A stretch of DNA of 63,816 bases, the filler included, from Deltaproteobacteria bacterium (lineage in GTDB: Bacteria > JAEEML01): assembly GCA_016283195.1 (NCBI GenBank). It is 8 parts of 8 records of this genome, joined end to end, with 100 filler letters (N's around TTAATTAATTAA, not from the genome) between each part and the next. Parts side by side here need not be neighbours in the genome. Positions count along the whole stretch, not along the records: positions 37,577 to 45,271 come from JAEEML010000110.1; 7 more parts are not named here. The stretch is one strand, 5' to 3'. Within the stretch, counting starts at the first letter, position 1, and each line of letters begins with the position of its first letter. The notes beneath the pieces are model-generated. The model was not told the DNA's origin. It did not search any database and saw only the letters and a list, made by a program, of their open reading frames with translations. A program made the position numbers and the translations under genes. Shown here piece after piece: positions 3,105-61,089 of the stretch.

Positions 3105-3197
3105 AAGAAAATACCTCCATAAAAAACGGAATTATTTTAGCAGAATATGAAAATTAAAGTCAACGGACGGATCAGGGTAAATGTGGGCCTAATTCTC

Positions 3198-3318
3198 AAA
3201 ATTGCCTATGATTTGTGACAAAAAACAACCAAAATTGCCTATAGTTTGTGACATAGTCTACCAAAATTGCCTATGTTCTATGACAAGTTTTTGTTGAAAT
3301 TGCCTATGTTATGTGACA
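3198..3318 (+). repeat. Four 23-bp direct repeats with 33/32/33-bp period upstream of an AAA ATPase gene
   Basis: Consensus AAAATTGCCTATNNTNTRTGACA, copies starting at 3198, 3231, 3263 and 3296. Confidence 0.9.
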
Positions 3319-3374
3319 AATTCATTAAGGTTATGTGGCGTAAAGCCTAATAAACTCCAAACCAGGAGAGCAAA

Positions 3375-4718
3375 ATGGCATTTTATCGGCAAATATTAGA
3401 GGGGCTTCATAGCTGGAAAAAAAATGAGCTACATAAACCATTAATCATTCGCGGCGCCCGTCAGGTTGGTAAAACCACTATCATTAAAGATTTTGGTCAA
3501 ACTTTTGATACCTTTATCATGCTCAATCTGGAGCGTCCACAGGATCGCCGCCTCTTTGAAAGCGAGCTCCCGCCGTCTCAGCTCTTGCAGAGAATCTGTT
3601 TGGAAAAGCATATTCGCCAACAGGGGAAAACGCTCTTATTTCTTGATGAAATCCAGAATTCACCGGCAGCGGTAGCCATGCTGCGCTATTTTTATGAAGA
3701 TTTGCCGGAATTATATGTCATCGGTGCCGGATCATTACTGGAAATTATGATGGATGTGCACAAAATCAGCTTTCCGGTAGGACGCGTTGAGTATTTGTAC
3801 CTATACCCCATGACCTTTAGTGAATTTTTGCTGGCCATGAAAGAAGAGGAGGCTTTAGCCCTGCTCAATGAAACGCCAGTTCCTGAATGGGCGCTTTCCA
3901 CATTATATCAGTTATTTAGAGAATATACCATGGTGGGCGGTATGCCGGAGGCGGTGGCTAATTATATAAAACGACGCTCTATTTTGGACTGCCAGCCAGT
4001 ATATAGGAATCTATATATTTCCTACACCGATGATGTGGCCAAATATGCCAACAACAGCCAGCAGGAACAGATTTTGCGCCTTTATATAGAAGCGGCACCG
4101 CTGGAAAGCGGTAAGCGCATCACTTTTGAAAAATTTGGCGGCACCAATTATAAATCGCGTGAATCAGCTGAAGCGCTGCGTATACTGGAACGAGCTATGT
4201 TAATTTATTTGCGTTATCCGGTAGCCGCCACCGCTTTGCCGCTCCAGCCCAGTTTAAAGCATAAACCCCGCTTACAATTTTTAGATATTGGCCTCATTAA
4301 TTATAAAGCCGATATACAGAGTGTTTATCTAACGGAGATTACTCTAGACGCCATGTATAACGGTATGCTGGCCGAGCAAATTGTTGGCCAAGAACTTTTG
4401 GCCGCTAATTGTTATGAACTCAAAAAACCGCTTTTTTGGGTGCGTGAAGCGGCCGGCTCCAATGCCGAAGTGGATTTTCTTATGTCATATCAAGGAAATC
4501 CCTTGCCCATAGAAGTTAAAGCAGGCAAAACCGGCACCCTGCGTTCTCTTCATTCGTTTATTCATCTTTCCGGAGCGAGTTACGCTGTGCGCTTTTACGG
4601 CGGTCCCATCAGTGTGGAAACAGTCAAAATCACCACCGGCGAAACTTACCGTCTGATAAACCTGCCTTGGTTTTTGGCGGCTAAGGTTAGTCAATATGTG
4701 GCCTTTTTAGAAAATTAG
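3375..4718 (+). CDS. AAA+ ATPase (AAA_14) with C-terminal DUF4143 / PD-(D/E)XK-like domain
   Basis: Walker A GARQVGKT, Walker B LFLDEIQ, GGMPEAV, EVDFL...PIEVK. Confidence 0.9.
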   Translation: MAFYRQILEGLHSWKKNELHKPLIIRGARQVGKTTIIKDFGQTFDTFIMLNLERPQDRRLFESELPPSQLLQRICLEKHIRQQGKTLLFLDEIQNSPAAVAMLRYFYEDLPELYVIGAGSLLEIMMDVHKISFPVGRVEYLYLYPMTFSEFLLAMKEEEALALLNETPVPEWALSTLYQLFREYTMVGGMPEAVANYIKRRSILDCQPVYRNLYISYTDDVAKYANNSQQEQILRLYIEAAPLESGKRITFEKFGGTNYKSRESAEALRILERAMLIYLRYPVAATALPLQPSLKHKPRLQFLDIGLINYKADIQSVYLTEITLDAMYNGMLAEQIVGQELLAANCYELKKPLFWVREAAGSNAEVDFLMSYQGNPLPIEVKAGKTGTLRSLHSFIHLSGASYAVRFYGGPISVETVKITTGETYRLINLPWFLAAKVSQYVAFLEN

Positions 4719-9306: not shown

Positions 9307-9406
9307 NNNNNNNNNNNNNNNNNNNNNNNNNNNNNNNNNNNNNNNNNNNNTTAATTAATTAANNNNNNNNNNNNNNNNNNNNNNNNNNNNNNNNNNNNNN
9401 NNNNNN
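9307..9406. other. Artificial contig spacer (also at 15455, 31791, 37477, 45272, 55328 and 60990)
   Basis: N44-TTAATTAATTAA-N44 six-frame stop linker. Confidence 0.98.
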
Positions 9407-15242: not shown

Positions 15243-15554
15243 ATAACCACGCCACAAAAGTCTGGTGGTATATTTGGGCTTTTGTCAGCATACCCTGTGG
15301 CATACGGAAAAAGCTCATAAAGTTTGTTAATAAATATAGGCCGAAATATTTTAACATTTTTTACAAAATATCTTTTCCTTAAAAGCCCTCTTGTGGCATT
15401 AAGGGGCAGGGCGCAATATCTCGCCCCGAAAGTGAGATTTTTTATGAAAATACCNNNNNNNNNNNNNNNNNNNNNNNNNNNNNNNNNNNNNNNNNNNNTT
15501 AATTAATTAANNNNNNNNNNNNNNNNNNNNNNNNNNNNNNNNNNNNNNNNNNNN

Positions 15555-31568: not shown

Positions 31569-31890
31569 CAAATACCTCGCTCTCCAACTGACCTTCGCTG
31601 GCAAATTCCAAGTTAGTATTAAGCTCCAAAGCCGTAGAAGCCGAGAAACTGCCCTCAGCATCCGACTTGGCATTGAGTGCCAAGCGAAAATGGCCATCAG
31701 CACTCAGGTCAGTCATCTTCATTTTTACCATATCGGCCCCAACTTTGGCAATATCGGAGGAATTAAAGTCAATAGTACCGTCGATAAGGANNNNNNNNNN
31801 NNNNNNNNNNNNNNNNNNNNNNNNNNNNNNNNNNTTAATTAATTAANNNNNNNNNNNNNNNNNNNNNNNNNNNNNNNNNNNNNNNNNNNN

Positions 31891-37476: not shown

Positions 37477-37576
37477 NNNNNNNNNNNNNNNNNNNNNNNN
37501 NNNNNNNNNNNNNNNNNNNNTTAATTAATTAANNNNNNNNNNNNNNNNNNNNNNNNNNNNNNNNNNNNNNNNNNNN

Positions 37577-38959
37577 ACTTTCATGCTTTTCCAAAACAGC
37601 TGTTATTTCCTCTTTGGATTTAAAGCTGCTTTCCATCAAAGCGGTAATATAATCACTCCCGGCTGCGTAAACAAAAAAGTTATCTTTTAATGCCCAGCCG
37701 ACTTTGGATTTCTCACCGGTGCTATACACGGTGGCTCCGCTTATTTCACTTTTTATTAAATCCTTTTCCAAGGCTTTGGAAAGCGGCGCGGAGAGCTCCT
37801 CGAGAAGAGGCGAAAAAGCATTGGTATCTTTTACGTGCGCACTCACGGCTATTTGCACTAATTCTAAAAATATCGCTTCTTTATTAACTTTACCGCCGCC
37901 TTTAAGAAGCACAGGCAAAATACGCAAAACATCGCCCAGATGCACCGAAGCTATATATGGAGCGTTAAATTGCTGCACCAATTTACCGGCATAAGGCAGC
38001 AGGGGATTGGCCTCGCTATCGCTTGCGGCATCGGCAATAAGCGCCGCCACTTTATCTTCCATAAGAGAAATATCTGCCGTAGCTAAGGCGTATAAGATTG
38101 TTTCAGCCGGCACATCCTGGGCGCCGTCGGCCAGTTTTCCGGCCGAGAGTACTCGCTGGGCCAAAGCGGCTGTCGCCTGGCCCATTTGCAATTGCCCGGA
38201 GAGGTCAAAACGGCCTTTTTCGGCAGTAAAATCAAGCAATGCTCCGGTCACAATATCATCAAGTTTTTTAGTAAAAGGCGCTTTATCATTGTTAAAGACA
38301 TAAAAAGCGCCTTTGGGTGCCACCCGCTTTTTGAGCTCATTAAATTTAGGTAAATTACTGAGCTCCCGGCCGTTGCTGTTTTTGAGAAAAGCGGCGAATT
38401 TTTGTGCCCATTCACTTTTATTAAATATATAGGCATACTTACCTTCAAAGGTGTAATAAACAGTGTGCTTATTGCTAAGTTGCTCAAAAATACGGTCCTC
38501 AATAACCTGCTGCGAAACTGTTGGCTGCTCATCAATTTGGCCAAAAACATATTTAAATTGCTCAGCAAATTTCTTTTCATCAGCCACCGGCAAAATCGCA
38601 GCCAAACCGGCAGTTTCCCCCTTTTGCGGCACATTTTGATTATAGGCAAAAAAGGCCGCCCCGGCCGAGACATCGAGGCCCATTTTTTTATAATCTCCGG
38701 CTACTGTGGGGTCAAAACCGTAGCGCACCTTAATACTCGCTTTAATGTTTTCCAAATCGGCGGCGCTATCAGGTGAAACCAAGCCGTTTATAAAATCGTT
38801 CATTGCAGCTACAGCTTTTGAAAGCTCAGGAATTATCGCCACTTGCGAGCTATCGCCGGGTACAGCCGCTTCAATCGGCTTACGCCCACTACCGCAAGTA
38901 CAACCGCCAGCGCATAAAATAGCCGAGAAAAGAAGACAAATTTTTAATTGCTTTCTCAT
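37577..38959 (-). CDS. Hypothetical lipoprotein, 3'-truncated
   Basis: Lipobox AGGC; long ORF. Confidence 0.75.
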
Positions 38960-41850: not shown

Positions 41851-42001
41851 AACAACTGCGCTTTCGGGCAACAAAAATAATTACCACCCTTTAAATCAAC
41901 TTTTAAGTCGGCATACCATTTGACAAATTCCTCCCTTTGGCTATATACTACGCGCTATGCACTCAAGATGATTGCATTTTTATTAAGCTTAAAAAGGAGT
42001 C

Positions 42002-42805
42002 TTGGTTTTGGAAGAGCAAGAGCCGAAAGTTGAGAATAACTTACCGCAATTATTTAGTTTTCAATATCAATTTGTGGCCAGTGCCGCTGAAGGCGGCTTT
42101 ATTGCCGAAGATCGCTATAGCCAAGGCCGCAAAGTCCATATCTGGCCTATAGAGTTCACCGCCAAGCCGGATCTCCTGGCCATGATTGATTTTCAAAGCG
42201 CCATATATGATTTTAGAGCTCAACAGCGTAAAGACGAGCCGGCACTTTTAGAAGTAAAAGAAGATAGCTTCAAAAGCCCGCCAATAATATATATTATTGA
42301 AGAATTTAAGGAAGATAGCCACCGCTTAGCCGAAAAACCTTTTTATAAGCTATTAACTAAACATTTGGGCCGCTGGCTAAGAGAAGCTGAGGAATCGGAG
42401 CAGAAAATAGCGTCTTTTGAGGTAGTTAACTCCGATTCGCCTGCTCCTATGGAGCCCCGCCAAGAAGCACCGGAGCCGATGGAAGCAGAGCCGCTAAAAG
42501 CCGCAGTGCCACAGCAACTGCCGGAGCCGCCGCTCTCCGCTCAGCCACCGGAGCCGGCCCAGAATTTTTCAGTGCCGCCAACAGAGCTTTCTTATGATGA
42601 GGAGCTGGAATTACCACCTTATTCTGAAAATAGCGCTGACGATGACCCTTTAATCGACAGCTTTAAACCGCCGCTGATAGTACGCCTGGTAGAAACCGTG
42701 CATGATATGGATGAACAGGGAAAAACGGCACTACCTCTCCTCATTTTCCCAGGAATCATTGTATTAATCTTTTTTGTAATGCTCTATGCCCATATATACG
42801 GCTAG
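42002..42805 (+). CDS. Hypothetical protein with Pro/Glu-rich linker and C-terminal TM
   Basis: AAGGAG SD with TTG start; C-terminal hydrophobic helix. Confidence 0.7.
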   Translation: MVLEEQEPKVENNLPQLFSFQYQFVASAAEGGFIAEDRYSQGRKVHIWPIEFTAKPDLLAMIDFQSAIYDFRAQQRKDEPALLEVKEDSFKSPPIIYIIEEFKEDSHRLAEKPFYKLLTKHLGRWLREAEESEQKIASFEVVNSDSPAPMEPRQEAPEPMEAEPLKAAVPQQLPEPPLSAQPPEPAQNFSVPPTELSYDEELELPPYSENSADDDPLIDSFKPPLIVRLVETVHDMDEQGKTALPLLIFPGIIVLIFFVMLYAHIYG

Positions 42806-44014
42806 TTATGGTTTACGCAAAAAAGCATAATATTCATGTCTTAGCGGGCGATAGCCGTTTTCTTTCATCGCTGCGTAGCGGTAGTTATAGGCCGCTTTTT
42901 TGTGGCTGCCGGTGGCAATATAGCGCATAGATTCCTGCATATAGCTATCTATCTTATGCAAACTGTCTGTCGTATTTATCACCGGAAAATACCAGCGGCA
43001 CCAGGTGAGCTCATTTTTTGTGGGGTTATCATAAAATTTGCGCTTAAAGTAGCGGATAAAAACGCGCACCGCCTGGTCACCCGTCGCCCCCTTTTTGCGC
43101 CGCCAGCGATAGATAGCGCGGGCCTTGCGCCGCACTTTGGCTTTTATTTTCTGCAAAGCAACCGCCGAAATATCAATAGTGCCGTTATGATAAAAAAAGC
43201 CTAAAAATTCCCAGCCTTCACCGGGGGCGCTGTGTTTTATTTTGCGCGGATTCAGCGTTAAGCCGCGCTCAGCCAAAAAGCTTTTTATAAATTCAAAATG
43301 GCCGTTAAGCTCCTCCGCCGTCGGCGCAAAAAGAATAATATCATCAGCATAACGGGCATAAGGTATTTTAAGCGCCCAAAAGTGTTCGTCCAGAGCCGCA
43401 AGATACAAATCGGCCAAAAAAGGCGAAAGCGGGCTACCGGCGATTATGCCCTTCTGCATGGCTTCCGGCCCACTCTGGGTTATTGCGTAAGGGTCGCGCA
43501 AAATAGCGGCCATAAAGTCATAAAGGCGATCCTCACCTTTAAGCACCTCTTGCAACATAGGCAAAAGCAAAGCAACATCCACAGAATTAAAATAATCGTG
43601 AATATCCAGCTTTAGGGCATACATGGCTCTTATGCGCGGCCGCTTTACCAAATAGCGCAGGGCATCTTTGGCGCTCTTGCCGCTGATAAAAGAATAGAGA
43701 TTTTTGGCAAAGAGGCTGTCGTAGCGGTGGAGCGCATGGCCGAAAAAGCGCAAGAGCTCATTTTCGGCCTGGGGAAAAGCAAAAACCGCCCGTTTGCGGT
43801 CGGTGCCCTTTTTGTTTAAAAGGATCCGCTCAGGGTGCGGGAAAGGCAGCCCGGCCGCTAAATTTTCCAAAATAGGCAGATACTGTTTTTCATCAATAAA
43901 CTTGCGCAGATAGCGTTCTTCGCGCTTAGTAAGATGGCCGCTATCCAGCACCTTATTGTAATATTCTTCCCAAGCTGCCGGGCTCCATGCCTGCTCATAT
44001 ATATCTTTTGGCAA
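42806..44014 (-). CDS. Stand-alone reverse transcriptase (group II-like)
   Basis: K....KR, YSF..G, KLDIHDYFNSV, GIIAGSPLSPFLA.LYL, YARYADD, GL.LN..K, EFLGF; GGAG SD before TTG. Confidence 0.92.
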   Translation of the reverse strand: MPKDIYEQAWSPAAWEEYYNKVLDSGHLTKREERYLRKFIDEKQYLPILENLAAGLPFPHPERILLNKKGTDRKRAVFAFPQAENELLRFFGHALHRYDSLFAKNLYSFISGKSAKDALRYLVKRPRIRAMYALKLDIHDYFNSVDVALLLPMLQEVLKGEDRLYDFMAAILRDPYAITQSGPEAMQKGIIAGSPLSPFLADLYLAALDEHFWALKIPYARYADDIILFAPTAEELNGHFEFIKSFLAERGLTLNPRKIKHSAPGEGWEFLGFFYHNGTIDISAVALQKIKAKVRRKARAIYRWRRKKGATGDQAVRVFIRYFKRKFYDNPTKNELTWCRWYFPVINTTDSLHKIDSYMQESMRYIATGSHKKAAYNYRYAAMKENGYRPLRHEYYAFLRKP

Positions 44015-44042
44015 TTCTCTTGCTCCAAATCACGCTTGCCCC

Positions 44043-44076
44043 AAAAAAACAAAAGCCCATGAAGTCATGGGCCTTT
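44043..44076 (-). terminator. Intrinsic terminator between the structured RNA and the RT gene
   Basis: AAAGGCCCATG-ACTT-CATGGGCTTTT hairpin followed by GTTTTTTT. Confidence 0.75.
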
Positions 44077-44079
44077 GCC

Positions 44080-44222
44080 AAAGCAGCGGAAATATTTAAA
44101 AGTTTTCCGAAATTCGGAAACCTGTACCGGGTGATACCAAATAGGCCACATGCACGGCCCGCCTTGTCGGCGCTTAGGTATTTAGCTGCACCCTCTGCAT
44201 GTGCATAAGCCTCCGCCGCTTT
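44080..44222 (-). ncRNA. Putative RT-associated structured ncRNA
   Basis: 11-bp closing stem AAAGCGGCGGA/TCCGCTGCTTT, internal 8-bp and 7-bp stems, and possible pseudoknot pairings; lies immediately 5' of the RT. Confidence 0.65.
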
Positions 44223-44224
44223 TA

Positions 44225-44707
44225 TCAAAGAAGAGCGTTTTTGATGCGGTCAGTTACAAAGCTCTCTTTATTTTCGTAAACATAATACATAGTTACATAT
44301 TTTACATTATGTTTTCTACAAACAATCGGAGCCTTTTTAGAAGCCTTATCCTTGGCAATAGCAATAGCCAAAACCGGCTGCCCGTCTTTTACGAGGAGAA
44401 AATCAAGGGGTTTAAAAAACTTGCTCGCTTCCGCATCAATCTCAGTCATGGGCACATTTTCGCGGAGGGTGTATTCAGCAAAATTGCGGGCAATAATTTC
44501 TTTAAAATAGGCATGATTGCGATGAAAATCCTTAGTGTAATCAATGCCGTTTATCATAACGCGCCCGTTTTCTATGGTAGCTTTGGGGAGAGATGGAGCC
44601 GGTTTATTGGCGGGAGCGCCAGCAGAAGAAGAGCCACCTTTTTTGCCTTTTGTAGCCGTGTAAATCACAAAAATAACAATCGCCGCAATTATAATTACTT
44701 TTACCAT
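44225..44707 (-). CDS. Membrane-anchored DUF2726-like protein
   Basis: N-terminal TM, Pro/Ser linker, NVPMTEI...PLDFLLVKDGQPVLAIAI...CRKHNVKYV pattern. Confidence 0.6.
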   Translation of the reverse strand: MVKVIIIAAIVIFVIYTATKGKKGGSSSAGAPANKPAPSLPKATIENGRVMINGIDYTKDFHRNHAYFKEIIARNFAEYTLRENVPMTEIDAEASKFFKPLDFLLVKDGQPVLAIAIAKDKASKKAPIVCRKHNVKYVTMYYVYENKESFVTDRIKNALL

Positions 44708-44748
44708 TTTCTGCCTCGGCAGCCAGTTTAGAAAAGCCGCAACTGAGT

Positions 44749-44777
44749 ATGATAAATGACACCGAAGTTATTGTCAA
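44749..44777 (-). promoter_or_regulatory. Sigma70 promoter for the DUF2726-like/ncRNA/RT cassette
   Basis: TTGACA-N17-TATCAT on the minus strand. Confidence 0.7.
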
Positions 44778-44896
44778 TCAACCATTTTGCCCACCCAAAA
44801 GTCTATACTAAGTAAGTGGGGGGCTGGCAGTAGCTTTCCCCTACGCCCTCGGCGGTGCTACAATCCATAACGCAGCTCACATCTCCCGCACCTTGC

Positions 44897-45034
44897 TCAG
44901 GGTAAACTCCGCTTCTTCCTCATTTGAGCCATATTTTTTCTAGCGGCCTGTGCGCTCTCATCAAAACCGCAAATCGACTTTAGATACTCATCGCGCCAGG
45001 ATTCCTTATATTCGATTAACTGGCTCTCTGGCAT
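44897..45034 (-). pseudogene. Truncated Schlafen/AlbA_2-domain gene remnant
   Basis: MPESQLIEYKESWRDEYLKSICGF then diverges and stops at 45 aa; GAGGAG SD. Confidence 0.75.
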
Positions 45035-45371
45035 TGTGCACTCCTCTCTTTTCCGCTACTGGCGGGAAAAGCCCACAACTTGTATTATCCGGCGGCGGCG
45101 CTTTTGGCTAGCTAAAAAGCCGGATGGGGGGCAGGAATTATGGAGGGATAGAACTGGCAGACGGTAGGCTGGCATTACCAAGACAACTATTGGATTTTAT
45201 TGGTATCTAACACTCCATGGTTTCGCCTTCATCTCTCTTTGCCCCTCACATTTCTCGCAACTTGCACTCTANNNNNNNNNNNNNNNNNNNNNNNNNNNNN
45301 NNNNNNNNNNNNNNNTTAATTAATTAANNNNNNNNNNNNNNNNNNNNNNNNNNNNNNNNNNNNNNNNNNNN

Positions 45372-46457
45372 AGAGGCAAAATTTCTGGGATTCATCATAA
45401 CATCGCCGCTCCTCGCTTTACAGCGGACCCATTTGCCGTTTTCGCCGCATTTTTGCATACCGGCTCGGCAATAAGCTGAGCCCTTGTCATCATATTTGCG
45501 GGTGGCGCGTCTTTCGCGTTCGGCTATTTGCATTGTACCGCCATTATTGGCTATGTAATTTTCACGGTAAATAAGCTGGCTTTGATCTTGGCTTACTACG
45601 TTATTCCAGCAAAAGCGCTCTTCGCCGTTTTGACAATCGCAACCGTCGTCAACGGAACCATTACAATCATCGTCTATGCCGTTATTGCAAATCTCTTCTT
45701 CATTGCGCTCAACATAACCGCGGCACTCGTTTTCCCATTCTTGATTTTCATTGCATCTTTGGAAGCCTAAAATACATTTGCCAATGCCGGCTTGGGCTTC
45801 ATGCTCTTTGGGATAGCATGGGCGGTAGGAACCGGTGGTGCATTTACAGCCTTCGTCAATGACATCATTACAGTTTTCATCAATGCTGGGTGAATTTTCT
45901 TTGGTACATATTTCTTTGACGAAAGGATTTATTGCATAGTTTTGCTCATTGCAGTCATTAAGCGCATAATCGGCAGATTCTTTAGCCATACCAACAGAAA
46001 AGCAGTCTTCATCGCCATCGGGATAATCGTCGATGCTGCGAATTGTGATGGTCACTTCGGTGGTGAGGCCGGGGATGAAATTGGCGATGGCTACGCCTTG
46101 CATGAGCACATCTTGTTTGCCCATATAGCCGCGGGCGCAAATAGCTACTTTGCCGGCCATTTCTTTACTGGGTGCTAGTTCAAGCAATATCGGGTCGTTT
46201 GACAAATCGCGGCCATAGACATCCAGAGTAGGGCGCATATTGTCGTTTGTTTTTTCAAAAAAAACAGCTTTTTTGAAACTTTCTGAACTATCGTCCATGC
46301 GGCGAACACCCAGGCGTAGCTGCATCATGTTATCCGGCGGCGGAGTCTCGGCTTTTATTTTTAAGGTGATGGTTGTTGGCGGTTCTTTGGATTTACAGGA
46401 AGTGAGAGAAAAGCTAAGAGCAAGTAAGAGAGCAAAAACAGCAGAATAATGTCTCAT
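45372..46457 (-). CDS. Cys-rich lipoprotein with putative metal-binding (MopE-related) repeats, 3'-truncated
   Basis: Lipobox LTSC; DCNE....INP...EIC...IDENCN..IDEG and EICNNGIDDDCNG.VDDG. Confidence 0.8.
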
Positions 46458-55327: not shown

Positions 55328-55427
55328 NNNNNNNNNNNNNNNNNNNNNNNNNNNNNNNNNNNNNNNNNNNNTTAATTAATTAANNNNNNNNNNNNNNNNN
55401 NNNNNNNNNNNNNNNNNNNNNNNNNNN

Positions 55428-60988: not shown

Positions 60989-61089
60989 ANNNNNNNNNNN
61001 NNNNNNNNNNNNNNNNNNNNNNNNNNNNNNNNNTTAATTAATTAANNNNNNNNNNNNNNNNNNNNNNNNNNNNNNNNNNNNNNNNNNNN

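Follow-up and report, generated by a model that had tools for sequence, protein, structure and literature searches.

UG26 is a Class 2 group of UG/Abi reverse transcriptases (RTs) for which the literature searched holds no experimental study: in the full texts covered (supplements lay outside the scope of the search), Mestre et al. (2022; PMC9226505) and one virome survey are alone in naming it as an RT group. The available text of Mestre et al. counts 35 members, 9 of which lie beside cluster 1531, a COG2852/YcjD-like protein; that text reports no noncoding RNA (ncRNA) for UG26 and gives an ncRNA coverage more than 1000-fold greater for UG2 and UG28. Structured RNA motifs found near RT genes were named RT-1 to RT-19 by Weinberg et al. 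(2017; PMC5737381), who, in the sections available, speculated about a role in retrons or diversity-generating retroelements (DGRs). None of the full texts searched names the RT-5 RNA or its Rfam family RF03026, or states a link between UG26 and RT-5. Other Class 2 groups have been worked out in detail. DRT10 (UG17) requires an ncRNA, an RT and a membrane SLATT protein, and its protein-primed RT makes tandem repeats on a short template downstream of a stem-loop, with a C-terminal Ser or Tyr as the primer (Tang et al., 2025; PMC12632851, available sections). DRT9 (UG28) carries out ncRNA-templated poly-dA synthesis and DRT2 (UG2) rolling-circle cDNA synthesis; the accessible part of a preprint (10.64898/2026.06.29.735271) describes two stem-loops that frame the template in DRT2, DRT3, DRT9 and DRT10. 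Here a locus is described in which a UG26 RT, an RT-5 RNA and a small partner protein stand together in a cassette of about 2 kb. It comes from a Deltaproteobacteria bacterium (assembly GCA_016283195.1), from a stretch of 63,816 nt that was analysed as a whole and is called the window below.

The window is made of separate contigs joined end to end, as 44-N runs in seven pairs with 12 bases between them show (9307-9406, 15455-15554, 31791-31890, 37477-37576, 45272-45371, 55328-55427 and 60990-61089), so gene adjacency across these runs is not physical. The cassette lies on the contig at 37577..45271 (7695 nt; JAEEML010000110.1), and statements about its neighbourhood are valid inside these 7.7 kb. 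An earlier note on this DNA had described one minus-strand unit with a promoter, a 160-aa transmembrane (TM)-anchored open reading frame (ORF), a structured spacer and an intact 402-aa RT with a YADD motif. All of these parts are present on the minus strand, and they do form one unit of partner, structured ncRNA and stand-alone RT that is not a retron, the retron profiles falling far below their cut-offs. The description of the unit as unclassified and a candidate new system did not hold up: the RT matches RT_UG26 with 500 bits, the RNA is Rfam RT-5 and the partner corresponds to RTasCOG2852. The identity of the locus as UG26 plus RT-5 plus a cluster-1531-type partner is close to certain. That note had also held that membership of the RT in an already characterised family would count against its proposal; the family has indeed been catalogued, but it is experimentally uncharacterised.

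The RT gene (42806..44014, minus strand, TTG start) encodes a protein that, judged by profile hidden Markov model (HMM) scores, is a full-length member of UG26. Its match to PADLOC RT_UG26 (E 9.7e-151) runs over residues 7-398 on profile positions 5-395 of 398, and all further PADLOC models score at most 107 bits. The next specific models all belong to Class 2 UG/Abi groups (UG17/DRT10 at 90.4 bits, UG4 at 85, UG27 at 84, Drt9 at 75 and Drt3a at 71); Drt2 scores 56 bits. Pfam finds RVT_1 and no further known domain, which is the Class 2 criterion in the available text of PMC9226505. YADD occupies residues 222-225 (nt 43340-43351), and the motifs NLYSF (residues 105-109) and EFLGF (268-272) that the earlier note had read in this protein are there. 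Across 44 aligned RT homologues (alignment A4) 45 columns are invariant, including Y-A/S-D-D and a KLDIHDYFNS block. The protein has a UG26-specific C-terminal region, and Y380, a candidate primer, is the sole invariant hydroxyl residue in the C-terminal third of the alignment. The AlphaFold2 (AF2) model has a predicted local distance difference test (pLDDT) value of 92.7. Its fold neighbours are led by GsI-IIC, a group II intron RT (E 4e-16, TM-score 0.76), and continue with G2L4, DRT9 (9vma_A, E 1e-13, TM-score 0.57-0.62) and DRT2 (9c0i_A, E 3e-11). In a sequence search against solved structures, the best match was the 224-residue RT domain of 8bgj_A (E 2.7e-19), and no close relative was found.

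The spacer between the partner gene and the RT gene (44015..44224, 210 nt) is strongly structured: with a few flanking bases it folds to a minimum free energy (MFE) of -81.9 kcal/mol (z = -3.55), a value matched by 0 of 200 shuffles. It holds an RT-5 family ncRNA with an extra closing helix (44080..44222, minus strand), a placement that combines the Rfam match, covariation and the MFE fold. The match to Rfam RT-5 (RF03026) at 44206-44088 covers model positions 1-104 of 104, scores 49.8 bits over a gathering threshold of 45.7 (E 7e-8), and sits 74 nt upstream of the RT start. Flanking it on both sides is the closing helix P0 (44222-44210 with 44092-44080), and the P3 hairpin lies at about 44113-44094 in the MFE fold. 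The single-sequence MFE fold of the window copy yields P0, P1, P2, P3 and a terminator-like hairpin unaided. It also contains an extra small hairpin within the internal loop between P1b and P2. In one relative (L013) the internal loop that precedes P2 is enlarged by about 95 inserted nt.

The structure of this RNA is a closed, pseudoknotted fold with strong covariation, and it is under selection. In an alignment of 77 sequences, which favours the nested helices because it was fitted to a covariance model, the paired share of cells is 95.3%, compared with 79.9% in shuffles (0 of 500 as high); pairing drops to 30-42% when partners are slid by 1-3 columns, and 18 of 25 pairs show changes on both sides. 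The pseudoknot, which is absent from the covariance model, pairs the conserved 5′ tail with the loop (8 nt) of hairpin P2 (44202-44196 with 44154-44148, minus strand) and is seen through covariation. At alignment pair 21-166 there are 51 GC, 23 AU and 1 UA combinations and no unpaired case. At pair 23-164, 76 sequences have CG and the window alone has AU, so the window has its own compensatory change. P0 spans about 7-27 paired positions across loci, mostly 11-15. Its sequence varies by clade, with purine-rich A/G runs in Firmicutes, an A-run plus GGGG in Bacteroidales, and GC-rich helices in the window and in L002 and L010; it folds with z below -2 in 64 of 76 cases (median -3.3). Between P3 and P0 lies a conserved single-stranded linker of the form U-U-Y-A-A-A-N4-U-U, in which U (77/77) and A (77/77) are invariant at two positions. 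This UUUUAAAUAU segment (minus strand) is the candidate template.

The third part of the locus is a gene for a 160-aa partner (44225..44707, minus strand), which consists of a TM helix, a low-complexity linker rich in G, S, P and A, and a C-terminal domain. The helix covers residues 1-19 (nt 44651-44707, Kyte-Doolittle mean 2.49). The protein matches PADLOC RTasCOG2852 (E 5.9e-5, residues 65-159 on 77-166 of 167). It matches no Pfam family at E<=0.1, and neither Pfam nor PADLOC gives a SLATT match. When 44 partner homologues were compared with Pfam (E<=1), neither a nuclease family nor DUF2726 was among the 25 families listed; 45 others match at most one member each. The label "DUF2726-like" used in the earlier note thus lacks HMM support at E<=0.1, and what is left of it is a general nuclease fold. 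Sequence profiles reach no further: the best hit of the partner profile against PDB sequences, LINE-1 ORF1p, is not significant (E 0.36). The AF2 model, built on a 44-row alignment, has pLDDT above 90 over residues ~70-160 and the element order H-E-E-E-H-E-H. Foldseek returned 0 matches for it at E<=1e-3. An exhaustive VIA-align search placed the NGO0050 endonuclease-like structure 3hrl_A first (Z 9.3, rmsd 2.5 over 85 residues), followed by I-Bth0305I (3r3p_B, Z 8.8), a RAP-domain mitoribosomal protein (Z 8.1), Vsr (1cw0_A, Z 7.8) and the FASTKD4 RAP domain (Z 7.8). A best Z of 7-8 is typical for models with no clear match, so just the top two stand out. Model and fold matches give a core of the restriction-endonuclease-like alpha-beta-beta-beta-alpha-beta type, and the C-terminal domain (residues ~62-160, nt 44228-44524, minus strand) is accordingly described as a Vsr/DUF559-like PD-(D/E)xK fold.

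A nuclease fold is not necessarily a nuclease. In the 44 aligned partners (A1), R154 is the sole invariant residue, and the near-invariant ones are hydrophobic or aromatic. Strands 2-3 have no conserved acidic or lysine column and no D/E-x-K, and the column of D102 in the window protein holds T, S or V in most relatives. Given a single invariant arginine and no conserved acid or lysine, the partner probably does not act as a nuclease. The N-terminus is variable in kind. A hydrophobic N-terminal helix (Kyte-Doolittle about 2.5) occurs in just 2 of 115 distinct partners, those of the window and of its closest relative, L100. The other 113 start with amphipathic helices of the MGLF, MGLL or MDFG type (median hydrophobic moment 0.51), and 86 of these reach a moment of at least 0.4, against 8% of shuffles. 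The two kinds of helix at one N-terminal position suggest that membrane association is the conserved property. A complex prediction for the RT with partner residues 40-160 (alignments A4 and A1) scored 0.00 (mark 0.32) and gives no call either way. In one locus (L079, 17-2110) the partner domain forms residues 550-694 at the end of a 697-aa open frame, whose N-terminus looks like a translation-factor GTPase; EF-G-type domains occur in 2 of 123 flanking ORFs. A fusion, a frameshift or a wrongly called start would each explain this long frame.

RT, RNA and partner occur as a set. A protein search with the RT yielded 1008 clusters (E<=1e-10) out of 5418 candidates, and its nearest non-self sequence is 56% identical. 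Two sets of loci were then compared: the best 80 (L001-L080) of 151 relatives from a scan of one genome per species, and 80 metagenome loci, one of which is the window's own contig. The genome loci come from rumen and gut Lachnospiraceae, Bacteroidales/Prevotella, Erysipelotrichaceae and Oscillospiraceae, and their RTs are 39-49% identical to that of the window. Rfam RT-5 passes its gathering threshold in all 16 related loci in which it was sought. A covariance model seeded by those 16 sequences, which match it by construction, finds the RNA in 76 of 80 genome loci (the 16 seeds included), in the window, and in 71 of 80 metagenome loci (one being the window's contig). The partner is found by tblastn with the window protein alone in 55 of 80 genome loci (E<=1e-3); after two HMM rounds it is found in 68, always on the strand of the RT, and in 61 of 80 metagenome loci. 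The earlier note had suggested collecting homologues to see whether RNA and partner are kept beside the RT; the counts of 76 and 68 in 80 genome loci bear this out. Clustering of flanking ORFs over the 80 loci revealed no third conserved gene: once the RT (79 loci), the partner (68) and antisense shadow ORFs are set aside, the largest remaining cluster spans 14 loci of related genomes. The order can be permuted. In L001 (4001-6399), L013 (4001-6227) and L101 (155-2395) it is RT-partner-RNA, and since the RNA stays 3′ of the partner even there, it behaves as a 3′ untranslated region (UTR) of the partner gene. A search of sequencing runs listed 12 matching DNA runs, all as Logan contigs from gut or unlabelled metagenomes (share at most 0.31), and no RNA run. 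Four of the 12 cover the cassette in short contigs (150-440 nt, depth 2.4-5), and at this low depth no joint is seen inside it.

Comparison with L100 shows how the cassette is bounded. A sigma-70-like promoter (44749..44777, minus strand) consists of a -35 box TTGACA at 44777-44772, a 17-nt spacer and a -10 box TATCAT at 44754-44749. With 11 of 12 consensus matches it is the best of three such sites in 42600-45000, a number that is not unusual (shuffle mean 4.2). L100, whose RT is 90% identical over the 190 residues available before its contig ends, has TTGACA-N17-TAATAT at the same place, and its cassette repeats the layout of the window: promoter, TM-bearing partner, RNA, and a hairpin with a T-run between RNA and RT. 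In blastn, the alignment of L100 2219-3569 to the window sets in at about 44788 (81.8% over 1377 nt). The homology thus starts roughly 10 nt upstream of the -35 box, and the flanks further upstream are unrelated. For nonsynonymous over synonymous differences relative to L100 (pN/pS), the RT has a ratio of 0.18 and the partner one of 0.35. Taken together, the sharp boundary, the unrelated flanks in close relatives and the pN/pS values indicate a selected, self-contained module that sits at different sites. Between the ncRNA and the RT start lies an intrinsic-terminator-like hairpin with a T-run (44043..44079, minus strand; 14 pairs, 6 of them G-C, and a 4-nt loop), found both by a terminator scan and in the MFE fold of the spacer. 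L100 has a hairpin and T-run at the equivalent position with a different stem sequence. A terminator at this point in both loci suggests an excess of RNA over RT mRNA. In a Lachnospiraceae sub-group (L004, L015, L017, L019, L020, L023 and L026) the distance from RNA end to RT start is 60-280 nt, against about 10-60 nt in most loci.

How does this cassette compare with the systems described so far? With published UG26 it shares the full-length HMM match, an RT with no extra known domain, and an adjoining small COG2852-like protein. The available text of the survey gives a partner for 9 of 35 members and no ncRNA, whereas here the partner accompanies 68 of 80 and the RNA 76 of 80. The window and L100 differ from their UG26 kin in that the partner carries a true TM helix where an amphipathic one is usual, and in having a terminator between RNA and RT; these two features, together with the extra small RNA hairpin seen in the window, are what is particular to this copy. 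Its RNA matches the whole 104-position RT-5 model above gathering and stands beside an RT gene, as that family should. Compared with the Rfam model, however, the functional RNA seems longer, as the covarying P0 joins both flanks of the match. The pseudoknot between 5′ tail and P2 loop is a further addition, which may already be in the published RT-5 drawing, and the hairpin in the P1b/P2 internal loop is extra in the window copy. DRT10 is the best-scoring characterised UG model after UG26 (90 bits), likewise a Class 2 RT, and the likeness extends to the tripartite make-up, a membrane-associated accessory protein, an ncRNA of similar size (about 137 nt in DRT10) and a single-stranded segment framed by stems. 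The RT nevertheless belongs to another HMM family, the partner has a degenerate nuclease fold and not SLATT, the order here is partner-RNA-RT whereas the DRT10 RNA lies upstream of SLATT, and the RNA has a pseudoknot and a closing helix. A score of 90.4 bits with RT_UG17 against 500 with RT_UG26, and no SLATT, make it less probable that the locus is a DRT10; they do not make it less probable that it works like one. DRT9 and DRT2 share the upstream ncRNA and the Class 2 RT, and their RT structures are clear fold matches, but their sequence similarity is low (the 75 and 56 bits given above), the RT-5 RNA has no conserved poly-U template, and both are two-component systems with no obligatory partner. 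As for the partner, its ~100 C-terminal residues superpose on the Vsr/DUF559/RAP fold (3hrl, 3r3p, 1cw0 and 9gek; Z 7.8-9.3, rmsd 2.3-3.1, 83-90 residues), from which it differs by the missing Pfam or PDB family match at sequence level, the missing conserved catalytic motif and the added N-terminal membrane element.

These comparisons lead to a reading that is favoured overall, with somewhat better than even confidence: a self-contained UG26 cassette of ~2 kb in which an RNA-copying RT works with a membrane accessory partner. One promoter would drive the partner gene and the ~143-nt RT-5 ncRNA in its 3′ UTR, and the RT gene would probably be expressed at a lower level by read-through past the terminator-like hairpin. 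The RT would bind the closed, pseudoknotted RNA and copy a short internal single-stranded template into DNA; the candidate is the conserved U-U-Y-A-A-A-N4 segment framed by P3 and P0, and synthesis might be reiterative. RNA-templated DNA synthesis, argued from homology with DRT2, DRT9 and DRT10 and from the RNA architecture, is the likely part of this scheme. The partner, a catalytically degenerate Vsr-like domain at the membrane, would be an accessory sensor or effector for the DNA product or the ribonucleoprotein and not a nuclease; that it acts at the membrane is put forward tentatively. The weakest step concerns function: a defence role, probably anti-phage as for the tested Class 2 groups, might be right or wrong with about equal probability.

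A bolder version of this scheme can be drawn from the RNA. Its P0-closed pseudoknotted layout resembles the template/pseudoknot core of telomerase, and the UG26/RT-5 RNA core, with P0, a true pseudoknot and a short hairpin-bounded template, may be nearer to that domain than the DRT10 RNA is. UG26/RT-5 would then be a further bacterial telomerase-like machine, whose tandem-repeat DNA is read by a membrane-tethered, catalytically dead Vsr-fold effector, and a new, unnumbered DRT type. We regard this as speculative and on balance unlikely.

A number of observations weigh against the favoured reading. Five loci (L005, L020, L021, L022 and L032) keep RNA and RT with no partner, so the partner is not essential everywhere. 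They are among 12 genome loci that lack it; of the others, four are cut by contig ends (L002, L010, L037 and L052) and three are solo RTs (L011, L024 and L025). Within 3-4 kb of seven related RTs there is no RNA and no partner. The RNA of the window, at 49.8 bits, scores below all 16 other Rfam RT-5 matches (50.3 to 98.3). The DRT10-type A-B-A′ signature is weak in RT-5 RNAs: in the P3/P0 linker, 53 of 116 RNAs repeat the opening 3 nt of the candidate template at offset +10, and the C/U association is slight. The fold of the RT is nearer to group II intron RTs than to any DRT. On function, the available text of Mestre et al. (PMC9226505) rates the defence association of UG26 as inconclusive, and no product, RNA end or phenotype is reported for any UG26 member in the literature searched. 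On its own contig, the cassette has as neighbours a 6-domain S1 protein, CysK and an unannotated 267-aa ORF. When 123 nearest flanking ORFs from 70 loci were compared with PADLOC (E<=1e-10), 19 models matched with one member each; they fall under four names (PDC-S01, HEC-06, Orf5 and SspE) and so probably stand for about four proteins. The commonest flanking Pfam families are HAD hydrolases, P-type ATPases, LUD-domain proteins, glycosyl hydrolases and EF-G, which are metabolic or housekeeping, and with flanking genes mostly metabolic a defence role is unproven. Nor does the genomic context lend weight to the membrane-linked cDNA product that the earlier note had proposed along with an anti-phage role.

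The seven related RTs (L011, L024, L025, L082, L085, L089 and L110) form a UG26-like sub-clade, 45-50% identical to the window RT and lacking both the RT-5 RNA and the partner; they may be solo or trans-acting RTs, or decaying ones. In L011 and L089 the RT stands nearly spacer-free between a 633-aa gene and a 2-hydroxyacid-dehydrogenase-like gene, and these two genes adjoin in L025. In L005, one of the loci with no partner, a 194-aa protein with two predicted hydrophobic segments (3143-3727) lies directly upstream of the RNA, at the usual place of the partner, and may be an alternative membrane partner.

The main rival to the favoured reading accepts the same cassette and gives it a role other than phage defence, either cellular (DNA/RNA metabolism or stress response) or as a selfish mobile module. 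The genes closest to the cassette in 70 loci are by a wide margin metabolic or housekeeping and very rarely match PADLOC models, and this fits such a role, as does the inconclusive defence enrichment in the available sections of PMC9226505. So does the viral side: a scan of viral contigs with invariant RT motifs found 22 relatives, all at 22-28% identity and none of them UG26. (Twenty of these contigs, L161-L180, carry one of the two invariant UG26 scan motifs in RTs that are 22-24% identical; 19 come from one IMG/VR data set, and these are presumably another phage-carried UG group.) Close relatives in unrelated contexts with a sharp boundary at the promoter are what a moving module would show. 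Yet a patchy, context-independent distribution fits defence genes too, and outside islands it is common to find small, self-standing defence cassettes. The tested Class 2 groups UG2, UG28, UG17 and UG3 with UG8 are moreover all antiviral in the sources as far as available. A role outside defence is therefore judged somewhat unlikely, and it is the alternative to be taken most seriously. The partner could instead be an active Vsr/DUF559-type endonuclease, acting as the toxic effector and cleaving DNA when the RT product appears or disappears. The two best fold matches and Vsr are indeed endonuclease-like (Z 9.3, 8.8 and 7.8), but RNA-binding RAP domains score like Vsr (Z 7.8-8.1), R154 is the one invariant residue, D102 is not conserved, the third strand has no acidic-x-K, and the 25 Pfam families listed for the 44 members include no nuclease, which together make this idea improbable.

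Two further explanations concern the RT itself, which the evidence supports as being neither a retron, group II intron, DGR nor CRISPR-associated RT. A divergent retron would have P0 as its a1/a2 inverted repeats and make branched multicopy single-stranded DNA (msDNA) primed from an RNA 2′-OH. It would account for the effector-ncRNA-RT layout and for the terminal helix that closes the 5′ and 3′ ends of the ncRNA, and Weinberg et al. (PMC5737381, available sections) speculated that many RT motifs act in retrons. It is very improbable all the same: retron_St85_RT reaches 53.3 bits where the cut-off is 235 and retron_Ec67_fus 18.6 where it is 450, the PADLOC retron RT model RT_II-A reaches 50 bits against 500 for RT_UG26, and in place of a long msd-type stem the RNA has a pseudoknotted multi-helix core. 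The retron-type motifs named in the earlier note are also absent from the RT sequence. That the RT is a domesticated or decayed group II intron maturase/RT without retro-function finds its support in GsI-IIC as the best solved-structure match and in the best NCBIfam match, the group II maturase model TIGR04416. That model, however, gives 100.8 bits against a cut-off of 300, and no NCBIfam model reaches its own cut-off. No group II intron RNA occurs among Rfam matches at E<=1 in 42000-46000, in keeping with the earlier note, which had seen no intron RNA context. With catalytic motifs invariant in 44 homologues, strong purifying selection and a dedicated covarying RNA of a different family, an intron derivative is hardly credible. 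A DGR finds no footing either, since no direct-repeat family of at least 30 nt (of the template repeat/variable repeat type) is present in 41900-45271; the earlier note had likewise reported none nearby.

What surrounds the cassette adds little to it. A convergent plus-strand ORF of 267 aa (42002..42805) ends one base before the RT stop codon, so that, as had been claimed, there is zero gap between the two (the ORF ends at 42805, the RT at 42806). Its predicted product is rich in proline and glutamate, has a hydrophobic C-terminus and matches no Pfam, PADLOC or NCBIfam family. It was considered as a fourth component and rejected, with 0 tblastn matches in 80 loci and no family. The neighbouring CysK shares 82-84% identity with its counterparts in Lachnospiraceae and other Clostridia. 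Upstream of the cassette, 44842-45135 includes a 46-codon ORF (about 45034..44894, minus strand) that matches 0 Pfam families. In all four metagenome runs this segment is covered by contigs of 85-95% likeness at a summed depth above that of the cassette, and it resembles a piece of a gene that is widespread in other gut bacteria. Several genes elsewhere in the window (pilMNOP, a PLD-domain protein with DrmC-like PADLOC matches and a lipid A acyltransferase) were considered as neighbours and rejected because they lie on other contigs.

As a discovery the finding is modest, as both main parts had already been catalogued. Its interest lies in the family. The Class 2 groups that have been studied each showed an unexpected kind of DNA writing (gene synthesis, poly-dA, telomerase-like repeats), and for UG26 this locus and its roughly 150 relatives offer a compact test object: a bounded 2-kb cassette with an RNA model backed by covariation, a candidate template, and a partner with a degenerate nuclease site and conserved membrane targeting. 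Rumen and gut Lachnospiraceae, Bacteroidales and Erysipelotrichaceae carry the family in abundance, so its function would bear on the dynamics of phages and their hosts in those communities.

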